From Chiloscyllium plagiosum (Eukaryota): a stretch of DNA of 20,000 nucleotides. Position numbers and translations under genes: made by a program. This document shows, one piece after another, positions 6,646 to 18,153 of the stretch. The notes under the pieces are model-generated. The model saw only the letters and a list, made by a program, of their open reading frames with translations, was not told the origin of the DNA and searched no databases. Where the stretch lies: assembly GCF_004010195.1 (NCBI RefSeq), contig NC_057718.1, positions 59,864,775 through 59,884,774 of the forward strand, given 5' to 3'. How positions within the stretch are numbered: position 1 is the first letter of the stretch; each line of letters opens with the position of its first letter.

Positions 6646-6768
6646 AGGAGAAAGTGAGGACTGCAGATGCTGGAGATCAGAGTCAGATCTGGAAAAGCTG
6701 GAAAAGCACAGCAGGTCATGCAGCATCTGAGGAGCAGGAGAAACAATGTTTCAGGCATAAGTCCTTCA
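6646..6768 (-). mobile_element. Short Penelope-derived element, family B, with 12-bp TSD
   Basis: Flanked by identical ttaagtacagct at 6634-6645 and 6769-6780. Homologous to 16887-17008. Decayed hammerhead remnant atgaaggacttatgcctgaaacattg on the minus strand. Confidence 0.85.
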
Positions 6769-7263: not shown

Positions 7264-7397
7264 CCTCCCGCCCTGCTCCTCTAACCGGAAGAAAAAGACT
7301 CTGTAAGGTAAGGCTTTTATTTCTTTCTTATCATTCTTTTTCATGTATTTAAGTGCATTGTTTGATTTTAGTTAGTTCATATAAAGCTAAGCTTACA

Positions 7398-8345
7398 ATG
7401 GCCGGGACCTCAGACCCATGGCATGTGCCTCTTGCTTAATGTGGGAGTTAGGAACGTGGCTGATGTTCCTGACTCTTACAGCTTGCAAGAAGTGTGTCCA
7501 GCTGCAGCTGTTGTTTGACTGCATGACGGCTCTGGAGCTGCGGATGGACTCATTGTGGAACATCCGCGATACTGAGGAGGTCGTGGATAGCACGTTTAGT
7601 GAACTGGTAACATTGCAGGTTAGGATTGCTGAGGGAGACAGTGAATGGGTGACCAAAAGACAGAAAAAGAGTAGGAAGGCAGTGCAGGTGCCCCCTGCAG
7701 TCATCTCCTTCCAAAACAGGTATACCGTTTTGGATACTGTTGGGGGAGATGGTTCACCAGGAGAGGGCAGCAGTTGTCAAGATCATGGCACCGTGGCGGG
7801 CACTGCTGTTCAGAAGGGCGGGAAAAAGTCTCGTAGGACCATAGTCATAAGAGATTCTATTGTGAGGGGAGTAGATAGGCGGTTCTGTGGCCGAAAACGG
7901 GACTCCCGGATGGAATGTTGCCTCCCAGGTGCTCGGGTCAGGGATGTCACCAATCGCCTGCAGAGCATTCCAAAAGGGGAGGGTGAACTGCCAGTTGTCT
8001 TGGTGCATATAGGCACCAACGATATAAGTAGAAAATGCGATGAGGTCCTGAAAGAAGAATTCAGGGAGCTAGGAGAGAAGTTAAAGAGGAGGACCTCAAA
8101 GGTAATGATCTCGGGATTACTTCCAGTGCCACATGCTAGCCAGCGTAGAAATGAAAAAAATAGGCAGGGTGAACACATGGCTTGAAGGATGTTGTAGGAG
8201 GGAGGGGTTCAGATTTGTTGGACATTGGGACCGGTTCTGGGGAAGATGGGACTATTACAAAATGGATGGTCTACATCTGAACCAGACCAGAACCAATGTC
8301 CTTGGAGGAGTTTTTGCTACTGCTGTTGGGGAGGTTTTAAACTAA
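7398..8345 (+). pseudogene. CR1 ORF1p (zinc finger, coiled coil, SGNH/GDSL esterase), frameshifted
   Basis: ATG at 7398; CASC...CKKC; LQLLFDCMTALELRMDSL heptads; esterase blocks IVIRDSIVR (GDS changed to RDS), CLPGARV, HIGTND and DGLH. Small indels near 7405 and 7448-7485, and a +1 shift in the A7 run at 8154-8160. Stop TAA at 8343-8345. Confidence 0.93.
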
Positions 8346-10779
8346 TGTGGCAGGGGACTGGGAACCAGAAGAGAAAACAAGTAGGCAGCGAGGTGGAGAC
8401 TGGAGACTGTAAGAATTATGAAGGGAAGAGTAGGCAGACAGCAGATAAGCGCAAAAGAACTGATGGCCTGAAATGCATCTACTTTAATGCCAGGAGTATA
8501 GTGTGTAAGGCAGATGAACTTAGGGCTTGGATTGGTGCCTAGGAGTGTGACGTTATTGCAATCACAGAGACTTGGTTGAAGGAAGGGCATGATGATTGGC
8601 AACTAAAGGTTCCAGAATATAGACACTTCAGACGGGACAGGGAGGGAAGTAAAAGTGGGGGTGGAGTTGCATTGCTGGTCAGGGATGATATCACGGCTGT
8701 GCTAAAGGAGGACACTATGGAGGTCGTGGCTAGTGAGGCATTATGGGTGGAGCTGAGAAATAAGAAGGGTGCAGTTACATTATTGGGGCTGTATTACAGG
8801 CCTCCCAACAGTGAGCTTGAGGTAGAAGAACAAATAGGTAAACAGATTATGGAAAGATGTAGAGGCAATAGGGGAGTGGTGATGGGAGATTTTAATTTTC
8901 CTAACATTGACTGGGATATACTTAGTGTCAGAAGACTGGATGGGGTAGAATTTGTAAGAAGCATCCAGGAGAGTTTTCTAGACCAGTATGTCAATAGTCT
9001 GACAAGGGAAGGGGCCATATTGGACCTGATACTGGGGAACGAGCCAGGCCAGGTGGTAGAAGTTGCTGTGGGGGATTTCTTTGGGAACAGTGACCACAAT
9101 TCTGTAAGTTTTAGTATATTTGTAGATAAAGATAAGAGTGGTCCTAAGGGAAGAGTACTAAACTGGGCCACAGCCAATTATATCAAAATTAGGCAGGAGC
9201 TGGGTAATGTGGATTGGACACAGCTATTTGAAGGGAAGTCCACATTTGATATGTGGGAGGCTTTCAAAGATAGGTTAAAGATAGTGCAGAATAAGCATGT
9301 CCCGTTGAAGGCAAAGGATAGAAAGGGCAAGATTTGTGAACTGTGGATGACAGGAGAAATTATACGACTGGCCAAGAGGAAAAGGGAAACGTACATAAGG
9401 TCAAGGCAGCTAAGAACAGAACAGGCCCTGGAGGAATATTGGAAGAGTAGGACAAGTCTTAAATGAGGAATCAAGCGGGCTAAAAGGGGTCGTGAAATAG
9501 CTTTAGCGAGCAGAATTAAGGAGAATCCCAAAGCACTTTATTCTTATATAAGAAGCAAGCTGGTAACTAGGGAAAGGATTGGTCCACTAAAGGATAATGA
9601 AGGAAGGCTGTGTGTCAGACCTGAGAGAATGGGTGAGATTCTGAATAATTACTTTGCATCAATGTTCACTGAGGAGAGGAACATGGTGAATCTTGAGATT
9701 AGAGATAGAAGTTTAATTAGTCTGGGTCACATTGGCATAAGTAGGGAAGATGTGTTGGGTAGGCTCGAGGTTATTAAGGTGGACAAATCCCCAGGACCAG
9801 ATGGGATCTATCCCAAGTTACTGAGGGAAGCAAGAGAGCAAATAGCTGGGGCCTTGACAGATATCTTTGTGGCATCCTTAAATACAGGTGAGGTGCCAGA
9901 GGACTGGAAGGTTGCTCATGTTGTCCCCCTGTACAAGAAGGGTAGTAGGGATATTCCGGGTAACTACAGACCGATGAGCCTGACGTCGGTGGTGGGAAAG
10001 TTGCTGGAGAGGGTACTGAGTGATAGGATCTATTCATTTTTCGAAAAGGCATACAACAGAGATAGGCAACATGGTTTGGTGCGGGGGAGATTGTGCCGTA
10101 CCAACTTAAAAGAGTTCTTTGAGGAAGTGACCAAGTTGATAGATGAAGGAAGGGCTGTTGATGTCATACATGGACTTTAGTAAGGTGTTTGATAAGGTTC
10201 CCCATAGTAGATTAATAGAGAAAGTGAAGTCACATGGTGTGCAGGGTGTTCTCGCTAGGTGGATAAAGAACTGGTTGAGCAACAGGAGACAGAGAGTAGT
10301 AGTTGAAGGGAGTTTCTCAAAATGGAGAAAAGTGACCAGTGGTGTTCCGTAGAGGTCAGTTTTGGGGCCACTGTTGTTTGTAATATACATAAATGATCTA
10401 GAAGAGGGCACTATTGATATGATCAGCAAGTTTGCAGATGACACGAAGATTAGTGGAATAGCAGAAAGCATAAGGGACTGTCAAAGAATACAGGAGGATA
10501 TAGATAGACTGGAGAGTTGGGCGGAAAACCCAGACAAATGTGACGTGATGCATTTAGGCAAGACTAATTCTAGAGCAAATTATACAATGAACGGAAAAGC
10601 CTTGGGGAAAGTTGATGGGCAGAGAGATCTGGGAGTACAGGTCCATTGTACCCTGAAGGTTGCTGCACAGGTGGATAGAATGGTTAAGAAGGCATATAGA
10701 ATGCTTGCCTTCATTAGACGGGGATTGAGTATAAGAGCTGGCAAGTCATGTTAAAATTGTACAGGACGTTGGTTTGGCT

Positions 10780-10811
<32 letters not shown>

Positions 10812-11253
10812 AACATTACTAAAAAGATGGGGACGCTTTGGAGAGGATGCAGAGAAGGTTTACGAGGATGTTGCCTGATATGGAAGATGCTAGCTATGAA
10901 TGGAGGTTGAGTAGGTTAGGTTTATTTCCATTAGAAAAAAGGAAAACGAGGGGGTCCTGACTGAGGTTTACCAAATCATGAAGAGTATAGACAGGGTGGA
11001 TAGAGACAAGCTTTTTCTCAGGGTGAAGGATTCCATAAAGAGAGGTCATACTTTCAAGGTGAGAGGTGTCAAGTTTAAGGGGGATACATGCGGCAAGTAC
11101 TTCACACAGAGGGTGGTGGGCGTTTGGAACGCGTTGCCAGCAGAGGTGGTAGAGGCAGGCACGGTAGATTCATTTAAGATGTGTCTGGACAGATGCATGA
11201 GTAGGTGGGGAACACAGGGATACAGATGCTTAGGAATTGGGCGACAGGTTTAG
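8345..11253 (+). pseudogene. CR1 ORF2p (APE endonuclease and reverse transcriptase), disrupted
   Basis: YFNARS, ITETWL, GGGVALLV, YYRPP, MGDFN, ILDLILGN, SDHN, SPGPDGI, NYRPMSLTS, MDFSKVFDKV, SGVP*RSVLGP, KFADDTK. In-frame stops at 8540-8542, 9464-9466 and 10350-10352, two more near 10790-10822, and frameshifts near 10168, 10720 and 10950. Confidence 0.96.
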
Positions 11254-11939: not shown

Positions 11940-12135
11940 CTCAAACACAACCGCAGCAATAGCCCTCCCATTAATGACTGGCTCAATCTCATTCATGAGG
12001 ATATTCCTCCTTCAGTTAGTTCCCACTCTTCTTTACAGAGGGATGTACTTGTCATGGATGAAAAGCTGACAGTGAATGCAAACTGTGCAATGGAGGTGTC
12101 AGACCTCCAGCAGTGCAGTGAATGTGCAAGGTAAG
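11940..12135 (+). mobile_element. Possible Gypsy pol relic (region before and including the integrase CxxC)
   Basis: INDWLNLIHEDIPPSVSSHSSLQRDVLVMDEKL...QQCSECAR loosely resembles I..GWP.....P.....YW..R..L.V.DG.L...C..C. Weak, and opposite in orientation to the adjacent relic. Confidence 0.25.
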
Positions 12136-12459: not shown

Positions 12460-12660
12460 GAACAAAAAAATAAAGAATTGCAGATGCTGGAAATCTGAAA
12501 CAAAAATAGAAACTGTTGGGAAAAAAAAAATTGGCAGGTCTGGTAGCATCTGTGAAGAGAACGCAGAGTCCATGTTTCAGATCGACTGACCCTTCATCAG
12601 ATGTTCCAGTCAGGTTCTGGACAGACCTGCTGAGTTTCTCCAATAATTTCTGTATTTGTT
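12460..12660 (-). mobile_element. Short Penelope-derived hammerhead-bearing element, family A, with partial inverted arm
   Basis: Homologous to 373-551. Minus strand 12600-12570 reads CTGATGA-A-GGGTC-agtc-GATCT-GAAACATGG. 12622-12660 is an imperfect inverted copy of ~12499-12542. Confidence 0.75.
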
Positions 12661-13323
12661 ATAACAAATAACATTAGAGTTGTCTGAATATGGAAATAAT
12701 TGAAATGAACAGACAGCATGAAGTGGGGCTGCTGGTTGCATGGGTTAAACCATCCCTGCACCTATAGATGTAATTGTTAACTTTATCTCTTGAGATCTCC
12801 CATCACATGCAGAGCCTTTGGCAGAATTCAATGTGGAGTTTATCACTAGGGGGAGCTGTGCCCTAGCTACTGTACCCAGAAGACAACTCTGATTGGCCGC
12901 AGAAGCCTCTCCTCAGCTGAAAGTGACAGCTGGGCTTTATTCTCGATTTTGTGGGAGGACAGTTAGTAATTTAAAAGGAGCGGTTACTTTTCATGTGCGC
13001 TTTATTTATACACATTATACACAAAGGAATTGAAGATGTTGACTTATCGGTCCAACTGTGTTGTAAACTGCCATAAATCACTTTTGAGGGGTTAGAGGGG
13101 CTTACTTTGAAAAGTTAATATGCTCTTTCTGCATCTGTCCTTGATTAATTTTACCTTTCTTTTATAATTAAACCTCTAATTCCAGTTTGTGCAGTTCTAA
13201 GATGCAGAAGTGGCAAATTCTACATGTATGGCATCATACCTTATGCAAAATGTATTGAAAATAGAGAAACAAAAATGTGACAGAAATGTTGTGGTTCTGT
13301 TCACCAAGCTGGGAATTTGTGTT

Positions 13324-13363
13324 GCAGTCGTTTCGTCCCCTGTCTCGGTGACATCCTCAGTGC
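13324..13363 (-). ncRNA. Hammerhead ribozyme motif, cleavage triplet mutated (GUC to GAC)
   Basis: gca-CTGAGGA-T-GTCaccgagacagggGAC-GAAACGAC-tgc; stem I is gca/tgc. Confidence 0.7.
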
Positions 13364-13617
13364 TTGGGAGCCTCCTGTGAAGTGCTTCTGTGATCTTTCC
13401 TCCGGCATTTATAGTGGTTTGAATCTGCCGCTTCCGGTTGTCAGTTCCAGCTGTCTGCTGCAGTGGTCGGTATATTGGGTCCAGGTCGATGTGCTTATTG
13501 ATTGAATATACCGACCACTGCAGCGGACAGCTGGAACTGACAACCGGAAGCGACAGATTCAAACCACTACAAATGCCGGAGGAAAGATCACAAAAGCGCT
13601 TCACAGGAGGCTCCCAA

Positions 13618-13657
13618 GCACCGAGGATGTCACCTAGACAGGGAACGAAACGTCTGC
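13618..13657 (+). ncRNA. Hammerhead ribozyme motif, core U4 changed to C
   Basis: gca-CCGAGGA-T-GTCacctagacagggAAC-GAAACGTC-tgc; the predicted site would follow 13654. Confidence 0.7.
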
Positions 13658-16600
13658 AACACAAATTCCCAGCTTGGTGAACAGAGCCACAACAACGAGC
13701 ACCCGAGCTACAAATATTGTAACAGAAATTCAAATTTAAATTTCTATTGTAATAACAATGTTTTATTACAATTTCTATTGAGAACAAAGAGGTGCTGCAT
13801 TCTGACTGCTTTTATAACTACTACTTTACAACAATTATCTCTTGATTGGTATTTTGTATCTTATTGTCAATAATCTATGCCCAACAGACTTTTAATGATA
13901 CTCAACAGTAAATTTGTGTTGGATTCAAAATAAATTATCATTTACAAATGCTAGAATACCTAAATACCTTTGCAAAAGACAATAGGAAATTGCAAGATTT
14001 TACTTTACCAAGATTAGTTTTGATCTGATACTTATTTTTTAAAAAGTGTGATTTTAGCCAATTAAAGCTAATTAAATTAATATGCCTCCAACAAACTGCA
14101 TAAACATGACCCAGACAGTTTAAATGTTTGCTGGTATTACTGATTGGCAAATGCTCAAGAAAGATAAAGAATTCAAACTTTTGTTTTTACTTCCTTGTAA
14201 ATGGAGACAAACCAGATTTGATACAAATTGAGTTGAAAATTCATGTTTATGGGCATCCGTAACAGTCACAGTTAATTCAGTAGAAACAAGGGGAGTTGTC
14301 CAAACTGAATTGATTTTTTACATTGAAAGTGAATTTTAGAACAAAAACTTTCACCTTGGTGTTGACTGAAGTTGTGAATAAGATTAATATCAAGATAAAC
14401 CGAATGTTTATTGCATTCATTTGCACATTTTTGCTCTAGGTCAAACATCTATCATGTATTAGGCAAGTAACTTGACGCCTCCCATAGCATGAATTGACTT
14501 GGGCAACTTTCAGCATAAATGTTGGGATCACATTTAATTTGGATTGTAATCATTTAAACTGAAAGTGCTAACAGGTTGAAAATATAAATGGGAATTCAGT
14601 GTTCTAAATAGTTTCTACAAAGTTCCCTGTTAGTTAGTTACAATTGAAATAATTGGCATTATCTAACCAACAAATCTGAGCTGAATGGAAATCTGATGTA
14701 TAGCAGATTTCTTGATGTGTTATTCCAGTGCCCTAACTGAGAGTCAGGATTGAGACATGTTGGCAAACTATAAAAGCAAGTCTCTGGAACAATGAAAGGC
14801 TGCAGACATCTGATAAATGTATAGTGAAATGCCAATGGGAAATGTCAAACAAATCAGGTCACTACAAATCACATTACTTGAGAACTTCAATAAAATAAAC
14901 TTAAATTATGCATTTTTATTTCAGATTATGTAGAGTGGGATCCATGTTAGTAATATCTTCCTATGACCTACATAGAAATAGAAACTGATTCATAGCCACA
15001 GAGAATCTTTAGGTATCCACATAATTATGATCCTATATTTTTTTGACCTGTGAAAAGTAATGATGACTGGAATACAGATTTCAAAGTCATTTGAAATTAG
15101 CTTACCAAATGATTGCTAAAATTGGTATCAACCAACTGATATATTCTGAATAACATTACCCAACCCAGGTTCACTCAAGGACTTTTGAGTTCAGCTGTCA
15201 ACAGATAAAAAAGTTCCTGGCTTGTGACACAGATTGGGATAAACAGTTATTTCTGAGTATGATTTATTATCCAACAGTATGATAATATGATCAACTGACA
15301 GGCTGTAAGATGTACTTCTTTCAATGGATAGTGAAACATACTGGTTAGTGTACTTGATAAATGGGAAACAAGTTCTATCATGGATAATATTGACAGTAAC
15401 AATATAATGGCAACTGGGCTCAATTATTTAAAATTGGCTGGCTACCAGTGTTCTGTACAATTATTGCTGTCTGCAATTTTAACCTACACTTCTGAGTAAG
15501 TCACAAGCCTGTTTGTATGAAACTTTTATGGTTCCTCTTCAAATACACTGATTGGATTCAATTACACAATTGGACTGACTACAGTTTGTACTGGTGTGCT
15601 ATTCTGTAAATTTCGAGGCTGAGAGCTGTTGAATGGAATATGCAACAGCTTGATTCAGATCTGCAAAACAGAGGGATGCAGCGTGAAGGTTGACCTAGAG
15701 CTTGCATTCTTGCAGCTATGGGTTAAGAAAAACAAAGGCATGTTGCTAATAATAAGTGAAGTACATTTCTGTAAAACGATTAGTTGTTAAGTAATCTTGA
15801 AACAAGGCTCTCAGAAGCATTTAAAGAAATTAAAGTTGATTAAAGAAAATATGGAAAGAATTACAACTTCATAAATTATACTTTGCTCCCAAAAAACTAG
15901 AAAGTATTTTTTCCATAATGGATACAGATAAACCAATGTCTCCCAATTTTTCTTTTAGGACTCATTTCAATAACGAAGTGGAATTGAATTCAAAAACAAT
16001 ACTGTAGATTATTTGACTTCTATTTGACACAGAAATACGGTGAAACCTGAAAATTACAGAAACCTAAAGGGACTGGCAGCTGATGTCCTCTTTTATACAG
16101 GTGTCCTTTTTTTCATAAAGGTCATTTTATATGTGTAACTTTATTTCTAATAATCTTTTGTTATGCAATTATGATCATATAATCAGTTGCACAATGAGAA
16201 TTACTGATAGTTTTGCGGAAGGTATAACAAAACGGATGTGGCAAGTGCTGTGCATGCACAGTGGGATATGTTCCTGATAGCAAAATGGAAAATTGTACAA
16301 TATGGGATTAGGTGCTTTTGCATCTTCTGGCCTGCATTGTCAACAATGCTATATTTGGAAGTGGGGAATGTGACTTCAGAAACGATCCAAACTGACAGGA
16401 CCAAAAACCAATCGAGGAGCAATTATCACAATTTCCATTCAAATTCAGTATCATCAATGGAACATTTCAAAGTGTGATTTCAGGTTGTGTCCTGTGTTTT
16501 AGTAGTAAAGGGCTTTGTGCATTGAAAGCTGTCTGTGGTTCATAGCTTGGCAGTCCCTGTTTTCAATGTATCTCCGTTATCTTTTACAATGTAAGTAATT

Positions 16601-16841
16601 TGGGATTGTCAATAAATAGCTGCTTTATGCAGGTTGCTGATTTTTGAAAGTGTTAATTTTTCACAGCAATTACTACACACTGAATTAATATAAGCTGTGC
16701 TAAAGAAAACCTATATTTACTGAAATGACAAAATTCAAAGTACCTTCCAATTACTATATTAGGCTACAATGGCAAATTTGAGACAAATGACAAAGACACT
16801 CCTTGACTACTTACTTTCTGCTTGTGCCCCTGTTGACCTTT

Positions 16842-17008
16842 GGAACAGGAGATTCGACGTTTCGGGCACAGGCCCTTCTTCAGGAATGAAGAAGGGCCTG
16901 TGCCCGAAACGTCGAATCTCCTGTTCCCTGGATGCTGCCTGACCTGCTGTGCTGTTCCAGCAATAAAGTTTCAACTTTGATCTCCAGCATCTGCAGACCT
17001 CACTTTCT
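16842..17008 (+). mobile_element. Young Penelope-derived hammerhead element, family B, with 5' inverted duplication and 15-bp TSD
   Basis: Perfect TSD cccctgttgaccttt at 16827-16841 and 17009-17023. Perfect 41-bp inverted repeat 16842-16882 / 16887-16927 with a ggaa spacer. Confidence 0.92.
16852..16887 (-). ncRNA. Intact minimal type I hammerhead ribozyme
   Basis: attc-CTGAAGA-A-GGGC-ctgt-GCCC-GAAACGTC^gaat: 4-bp stem I (attc/gaat), 4-bp stem II, palindromic ACGT stem III and a GUC triplet. Predicted cleavage between 16856 and 16855. Confidence 0.85.
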
Positions 17009-18153
17009 CCCCTGTTGACCTTTAACTAGTTCTCTCACAACCAGTCTACAATTTAGATAATCTTTAGTTGGTATTTCAACCAGTAAAGGGGCCTTACTTT
17101 CTACACTTTTAAAACACAGCAGAAGAAGTATCAAGTTCCAAGTAAATTATCCATTTAGAGCTTGATGACCAATCTACATGAATCAGATAGATTGATGTAG
17201 CATTGCACTTTAGTTCCATTATCTTCCTGCAGTTGCTGCAGTATAAGTGGATGAGTTTTGCCAATGCAGATCAATTTATCAAATTCTTTTTACCTCCACT
17301 GATAATCACTGTGAAAAAAACTGAACTTCCCTTAGTAGCTGTAACTGTAAAATTAACACCAAATATTTATTTATGTGGATTTCAAACATAAGGTACAAAT
17401 ATTCTCAAAAGGCCACCAAGTAACATAAATTTGCATCTCAAATGAGTACATTCCAATCCAGTAGGAAAACATGAACACAGAACTTGTCTTTAAGGACAGG
17501 GTAAATGTCTAATTTTTTAATATATTTTATATGAATGTGTATTTTGTTCATTCATGAACTGCTACTTAGAATATTAGGAATATTTATCCTACTCCAAGAT
17601 GACTTAACATTTTGCACAGTGAATATTGAAGGTAGGTTACAACATGAAAGTATTGACATCTCTATGCAGACTAGATTGTGGTGTTGCCTACTACACTGGG
17701 GGGAACCACTGAAAAGAAAAGCCCCTGAACGTGGATCCAGGGACCATGATACATTATTAACCTGTACCCTTTGCTTCTGATACAAGCAGCATGTCCGACT
17801 TGCATTGCCTGCTAATTGCATGATTACTGCTTGCAGCCAGCACTACATATGCATTTGAGTGGCTACATGTCTTAGCTGGAGGCCTAAGTTTATTTAAATC
17901 TCATTATCACCAGCATCCCTCCATCTACATAAAATAATGGATGCCTTCATTGGCTTTGGATGGCTTCATATAGTGTACTTTTACTGATGGCTGAAGAGAG
18001 CAATCTATTAGAGAAAGAATCTGCTACAAATGTTGCATATGAGGTTATCGTGTGTCATTGTGGTGCACTATTTGGTATTGGCACCTGACATTGAACTACT
18101 GTAGCCACCAATTAACATGATGGTGTATCTCACCTCATAGATAACATTATCAC

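Follow-up and report, generated by a model that had tools for sequence, protein, structure and literature searches.

Within the window, i.e. the whole stretch of 20,000 nt of Chiloscyllium plagiosum DNA analyzed here, an insertion of 167–169 nt lies between two direct repeats on the plus strand at 16827–16841 and 17009–17023. The repeats are identical at 15/15 positions, and the left one is the copy of the site that pre-dates the insertion. An earlier note on this DNA had proposed a perfect target-site duplication (TSD) of 15 bp. The identity holds, but the length is really 13–15 bp because the first two nucleotides of the right copy (17009–17010) also equal the element’s own end. The perfect 41 bp hairpin described in the same note is present: the arms at 16842–16882 and 16887–16927 comprise 41 nt each, are 100% complementary and enclose a loop of 4 nt (16883–16886). 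The fold computed for 16842–17008 reaches −107.8 kcal/mol (z −13.35), and 0 of 200 shuffled sequences folded as well.

If hammerhead C3 is numbered as position 0 of the element, the insertion resolves into two pieces of a pLTR. Arm A (16842–16889, minus strand) is an inverted piece covering element positions −6 to +41 (blastn identity 100% over 48 nt), and arm B (16887–17010, plus strand) is a direct piece covering +1 to +124 (100% over 124 nt). The two blastn matches overlap at 16887–16889, where the arms meet head to head with a microhomology of 3 nt. Arm A contains a complete minimal type I hammerhead (16852–16887, minus strand), recognized from its sequence with the feature list of PMC4209133, for which the monomer fold gives helices I and II; the copy in arm B is without C3 and helix I. 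Arm B furthermore carries an AATAAA hexamer, located in the pLTR of the young subfamily (16962–16967, plus strand), and is the only arm with the PLE ‘tail’ (16976–17010, plus strand), a segment of about 35 nt between two outer-end sites that runs into the ORF's beginning in longer copies.

Assignment to a Penelope-like element family and age of the insertion

The insertion is a recent, stump-sized product of a Penelope-like retrotransposon (PLE) and consists of two head-to-head copies of its hammerhead-bearing pLTR end. At least 40 copies are 100% identical to the locus over 167 nt (40 scored), an exact 47-mer of the tail end has 9,363 matches in the genome, and the exact junction of this locus is found in 238 genome copies. 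In longer copies, the 3′ end of an ORF lies ahead of the pLTR sequence and an ORF start lies behind it. At locus L274, the ORF contains RYIDD, a CX4CxxC linker and GIY-YIG, with the same pLTR downstream, while Pfam searches returned RVT_1 (3.9e-08) and GIY-YIG (9.8e-05) at locus L277 and GIY-YIG at locus L243. As in EN+ PLEs, the pLTR is tied to one ORF that encodes RT and, at its C terminus, GIY-YIG, a cysteine pair stands between GIY and YIG in the L274 translations (a feature taken from the available part of PMC8557442), and an inverted, 5′-truncated pLTR is combined with a one-sided tail of 30–40 nt and a TSD of variable length. [quoted passage not shown] The 21 fetched stretches were all gapped, truncated or interrupted, and none of them held a gap-free full-length element.

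A MITE or other DNA transposon was ruled out by the asymmetric ends and by TSD lengths varying from 11 to 17. Non-LTR retrozymes, as described in the available portion of bioRxiv 10.64898/2026.07.22.740005, resemble the locus in being non-coding, in their type I hammerhead and in their origin from a PLE pLTR, but they are head-to-tail tandems cut at the ribozyme, whereas the insertion here is head-to-head, has a single complete core and runs through the cut site, and a retrozyme was likewise ruled out. Tandems of this pLTR do occur elsewhere: at locus L174:2900-3800, a retrozyme-like array has four hammerhead-bearing units arranged head to tail with spacings of 224, 224 and 291, all within a single short duplication.

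The inverted pLTR, the one-sided tail, the junction palindrome and the TSD are all features that have already been described for EN+ PLE insertions such as Pen2a_Av in the available parts of PMC3846280 and PMC8557442. These published insertions share with our locus the head-to-head inverted pLTR, the tail of 30–40 nt on one arm and an initiator-like motif in the pLTR, and differ from it in that the short insert here is without an ORF or a second direct pLTR. Moreover, TSDs of 13–17 bp in this family compare with 8–10 bp in the rotifer examples, as far as the text at hand of PMC3846280 reports them.

The earlier note considered the insertion recent and named the lack of an empty orthologous site as evidence to the contrary; empty sites were found in two relatives and bear out a recent origin. 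Contigs of related organisms were aligned to 16200–17700 in four runs, of which one (X6) gave no coverage at the junction. A contig of organism C has 16826 followed immediately and without a gap by 17009, i.e. a clean empty site with a single copy of the duplication, and a contig of organism B passes from 16841 to 17041 across 18 letters, again an empty site. In another sample, presumed from its share of sequence words to be of the same species, a contig begins at 17009 from its 21st letter. The bin 16761–16811 has a depth excess of 0.42, equal to 5/51 of the contig depth, as would fit a left flank of 20 letters. From this contig start and depth, an empty allele probably exists in another individual of the species. 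An assembly artefact specific to this locus, which had been raised as a possibility, is ruled out by the 238 exact junction copies and the clean empty sites in the relatives. Arms free of mismatches are common in the subfamily, with 29 of 50 two-arm copies matching the reference fully in both arms in a sample that was chosen by an exact 47-mer and is biased to young copies. The locus itself is an ordinary one among thousands of short PLE insertions. Its site is usable as a presence/absence marker. The family is of recent origin and probably polymorphic to this day, which could allow fresh insertions to be caught.

End sites and junctions across the family

The parsed family sample comprises 90 of the first 100 tail matches listed, all on one contig, and includes two loci (L062 and L175) that look duplicated. 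An inverted arm is present in 50 of these 90 loci. The outer end of the inverted A arm falls at +88 to +91 in 36/50 and that of the tail-bearing B arm at +124 to +126 in 73/90; these two fixed sites (~+89 and ~+125) are separated by about 36 nt. With its end at +41, arm A of our locus is shorter than usual; 4/50 A arms of the family end under +80. TSDs of 13–17 bp flank 37 of the 50 two-arm copies. The inner ends cluster at −6 to −1 (31/50 A arms, 25/90 B arms), a stretch of the pLTR that we take to be a match to the initiator consensus. At +26 to +30, the expected start of ribozyme-cut RNA, there are 3/90 inner ends of B arms and 0/50 of A arms. One single-arm copy, L156, has a 5′ end that fits the ribozyme cut site if overlap with the TSD is allowed. 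Of 27 copies that were scored to be without a partner, 13 have an extra G before position −4 (p 0.01, mixed sample), which is a weak hint at a trace of the RNA cap.

The junctions between the arms are diverse, with 41 distinct types among the 50 two-arm copies, of which 24 show microhomology, 8 are blunt and 18 contain inserted letters. In 33/50, arm A extends further 5′ than arm B while only arm B bears the tail. Therefore, neither arm is a copy of the other, since A has 5′ sequence absent from B and the tail belongs to B alone. Single A arms exist as well: among 31 loci fetched because they had no listed tail match, 10 end at +87 to +92 and possess a TSD of 9–16 bp but no partner, so that +89 also serves by itself as the end of an insertion. 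Insertions consisting of B only, with a TSD of their own, are also present among the parsed loci. When 30 of the 238 loci were picked solely by the junction found here, 13 had the ends A–B and 9 the ends B–A, none had A–A or B–B, and 8 had an odd end. Hence, the loop occurs in both polarities, and the two ends of an insertion are anticorrelated.

A neutral variant at N7 is carried by 359 of 11,934 arms (3% background). Its first 30 matches include 7 informative insertions, i.e. ones in which the site is covered by both arms; 6 of these carry the variant on both (p 5e-9) and one is discordant (L212), while 4 others are uninformative. The insertions bearing it have several different junctions. 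Close head-to-head pairs numbered 12 in the first 100 variant matches versus 8 in the first 100 common matches.

Possible origin of the head-to-head ends

These family statistics bear on the open question of how PLEs make head-to-head inverted ends, which are attributed to self-priming on an antisense template in PMC3846280 and called undefined in the available part of PMC8557442. We consider it probable that two reverse transcriptions, primed from both ends of a staggered cut, built the insertion; all steps of this proposal are read from finished insertions. The GIY-YIG nuclease would cut the target strands about 14 nt apart. One target 3′ end would prime at site B (+125), yielding the tail, and the other at site A, usually +89 and at this locus +41. 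From both primers, synthesis would proceed on one and the same uncleaved sense RNA in the direction of its 5′ end at the initiator-like motif (−6 to −1). Host end-joining would link the 3′ ends of the resulting cDNAs via microhomology, and gap filling would then yield the TSD.

In LINE-1 twin priming, similarly, both target ends prime, the cDNAs join by microhomology and an inversion results inside the TSD. There, each cDNA represents a different part of the RNA, whereas in the present proposal they overlap, which leads to a palindrome, and the second start has a fixed position. Within the openly accessible papers searched, none applied twin priming to PLEs. For Poseidon of the anole (Anolis), the accessible text of Frangieh et al. 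2024 (PMC11167929) reports in vitro cutting and extension of both strands and RT starts at two sites flanking the tail; the protein is predicted to be dimeric, and ribozyme cleavage is not required, uncleaved RNA being used. The two internal RT starts bounding the tail, the processing of both strands and the uncleaved RNA are as in our proposal. The family studied here differs from Poseidon by its linker of the Neptune/Nematis type, and within that same portion of PMC11167929 no link is drawn from the two start sites to inverted pLTRs.

In a more general form, we lean slightly toward the idea that PLE insertion is two-headed: a protein dimer on one capped, uncleaved RNA would prime from both cut ends with one subunit per fixed site and in this way yield an inverted pLTR as well as a tail on one side and a TSD. 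If true, two-headed insertion has left a quantitative record in the thousands of young copies of this genome. The anticorrelated ends, the single-arm copies from each site and the shared variants provide sharp predictions for an in vitro assay.

According to the self-priming explanation, in the version found in the available part of PMC3846280, one cDNA or antisense RNA folds back at a small TCA/TGA hairpin and copies itself, and later trimming and deletions at the centre give the asymmetry. The junction at our locus is a perfect snap-back motif, zero-loop palindromes occur in the family (L045, L052, L152, L159), shared variants between the arms would follow automatically, and the templated insertions seen at junctions are consistent with broken cruciforms having been repaired later. 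Nevertheless, a single fold-back cannot yield an arm with extra 5′ sequence opposite an arm with the tail, the +89 site also ends single insertions that have no hairpin, and the two polarities of the loop are about equally common; we therefore regard fold-back as unlikely. Priming from both ends on one uncleaved RNA is favoured over it by the anticorrelation of the ends, the shared rare variants, the variety of junctions and the two fixed sites that are each also used alone. Some observations count against the favoured mechanism, namely palindromes with B at both ends (L040, L030), arm-specific changes in 18/50 loci, one long junction that recurs in 3/50 loci, and, at our own locus, an A end that lies away from the modal site and without microhomology to the target. 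Shared variants would also be expected if two RNAs came from one source locus.

The three loci with the recurrent junction (L067, L077, L171) have different flanks and the common junction −149/−76, hinting that some palindromic copies act as sources. Together with the discordant variant insertion L212, this recurrence suggests that some palindromic copies may be re-copied as units. If carried further, a few palindromic master copies would be transcribed and retrotransposed whole as non-autonomous elements. Such masters would fit the fully identical 167 nt copies, the many instances of one junction and the long junction found three times. They are very improbable as the general source, however, for 238 copies are about 2.5% of the tail copies, the 50 two-arm copies differ widely in their junctions, the same junction appears in both polarities, and a single variant lineage bears several junctions.

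The hammerhead motif, transcripts and other features of the window

On the minus strand, the 5′ strand of helix I lies at 16887–16884, C3 at 16883 and helix II at 16875–16864, and the predicted cut is between 16856 and 16855. The motif is made up of a 4 bp helix I, CUGAAGA plus an extra A, a 4 bp helix II and GAAAC-GUC, without loop III. On the plus strand, A replaces C3 and arm B begins at U4, so that the earlier note was right in placing the complete core on the minus strand only. With its conserved core, helices I and II, the missing loop III and the extra base after A9, the minus arm has the features of the minimal hammerheads (min-HHRs) of metazoan PLEs. It shares with the min-HHRs of PMC4209133 also the palindromic 15.2/16.2, G10.1-C11.1 and the helix I of 4 bp, and differs from them, as judged by sequence alone, in a helix II of 4 bp instead of 7–8. 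Pairs of min-HHRs on opposite strands, 100–700 bp apart, were noted before in PMC4209133. Rfam returned no hammerhead family at E 1, the matches being sub-threshold chance hairpins. Among the 50 two-arm copies, the complete core is found in arm A only in 22, in both arms in 15, in arm B only in 6 and in neither in 7, and this varies with the junction; in copies without an inverted arm, the core is kept in 26/40 and the core plus helix I in 21/40.

The duplex had been suggested to bury the ribozyme, and the computed fold agrees: the probability of helix II is 0.99 for the minus motif alone and about 4e-19 within the whole insert, in which the hammerhead fold costs about 53 kcal/mol. The further claim that this lock explains why the host tolerates the insertion fared less well. 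In that reading, the hairpin is retained because it keeps an otherwise harmful ribozyme silent within a host transcript and supplies ADAR or Dicer with a substrate. It draws on the burial of the core on either strand and on family sequence in poly(A) RNA, but complete unlocked motifs are frequent among the single-arm copies (the 21/40 above), minimal PLE hammerheads did not cleave as monomers in vitro (Cervera and De la Pena 2014, PMC4209133), and neither a host gene nor an intron, as assumed in the earlier note, was found around the locus. Family-level reads showed no A-to-G pattern beyond one known subfamily variant at a mapping identity of 96%, which would miss heavily edited reads. We hold silencing to be most improbable. 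The hammerhead is likely a passenger, and the hairpin that buries it in read-through RNA a by-product of insertion and not a silencing device.

In RNA run X21, of which 2% was sampled, 419 reads fell on the element only, a family-level signal, and 0 on the unique flanks of the locus. At family level, 63 RNA reads carry the native upstream sequence of the element and 31 end in an A-rich stretch just after +90 (16976), about 9–12 nt behind AATAAA. At some loci, a poly(A) signal may come from the young subfamily. With regard to the hexamer and these 31 loose ends, site A was considered as a poly(A) end and rejected, as the inserts are without poly(A) and the inverted arm stops there too in an older subfamily that lacks the hexamer (L034, L046, L052, L058).

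For the stretch around the locus, no RNA record of a host gene is listed. A crude splice-site scan of 60 kb gave five exon candidates, one of them on the plus strand within the window. This exon-like segment (12039–12130, plus strand) combines strong acceptor and donor sites with a frame that is open and rich in cysteine; neither Pfam nor phmmer gave a match. Older relatives of the element lie on the minus strand at 1203–1291, a single A-type arm at 88% identity, and at 6646–6767, a tail-bearing arm at 80%. Other subfamilies are represented by two head-to-head stubs in a decayed state, at about 413–548 and 12470–12660. An older fold-back of another family occupies 13287–13694, with arms of 190 nt that are 95% complementary and 28 nt apart; within it, a hammerhead-like motif was noticed by eye at about 13620–13655. 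A broken LINE of the CR1/L2 type extends over about 7390–11250 on the plus strand, with an esterase-like ORF1 and pieces of endonuclease and RT.
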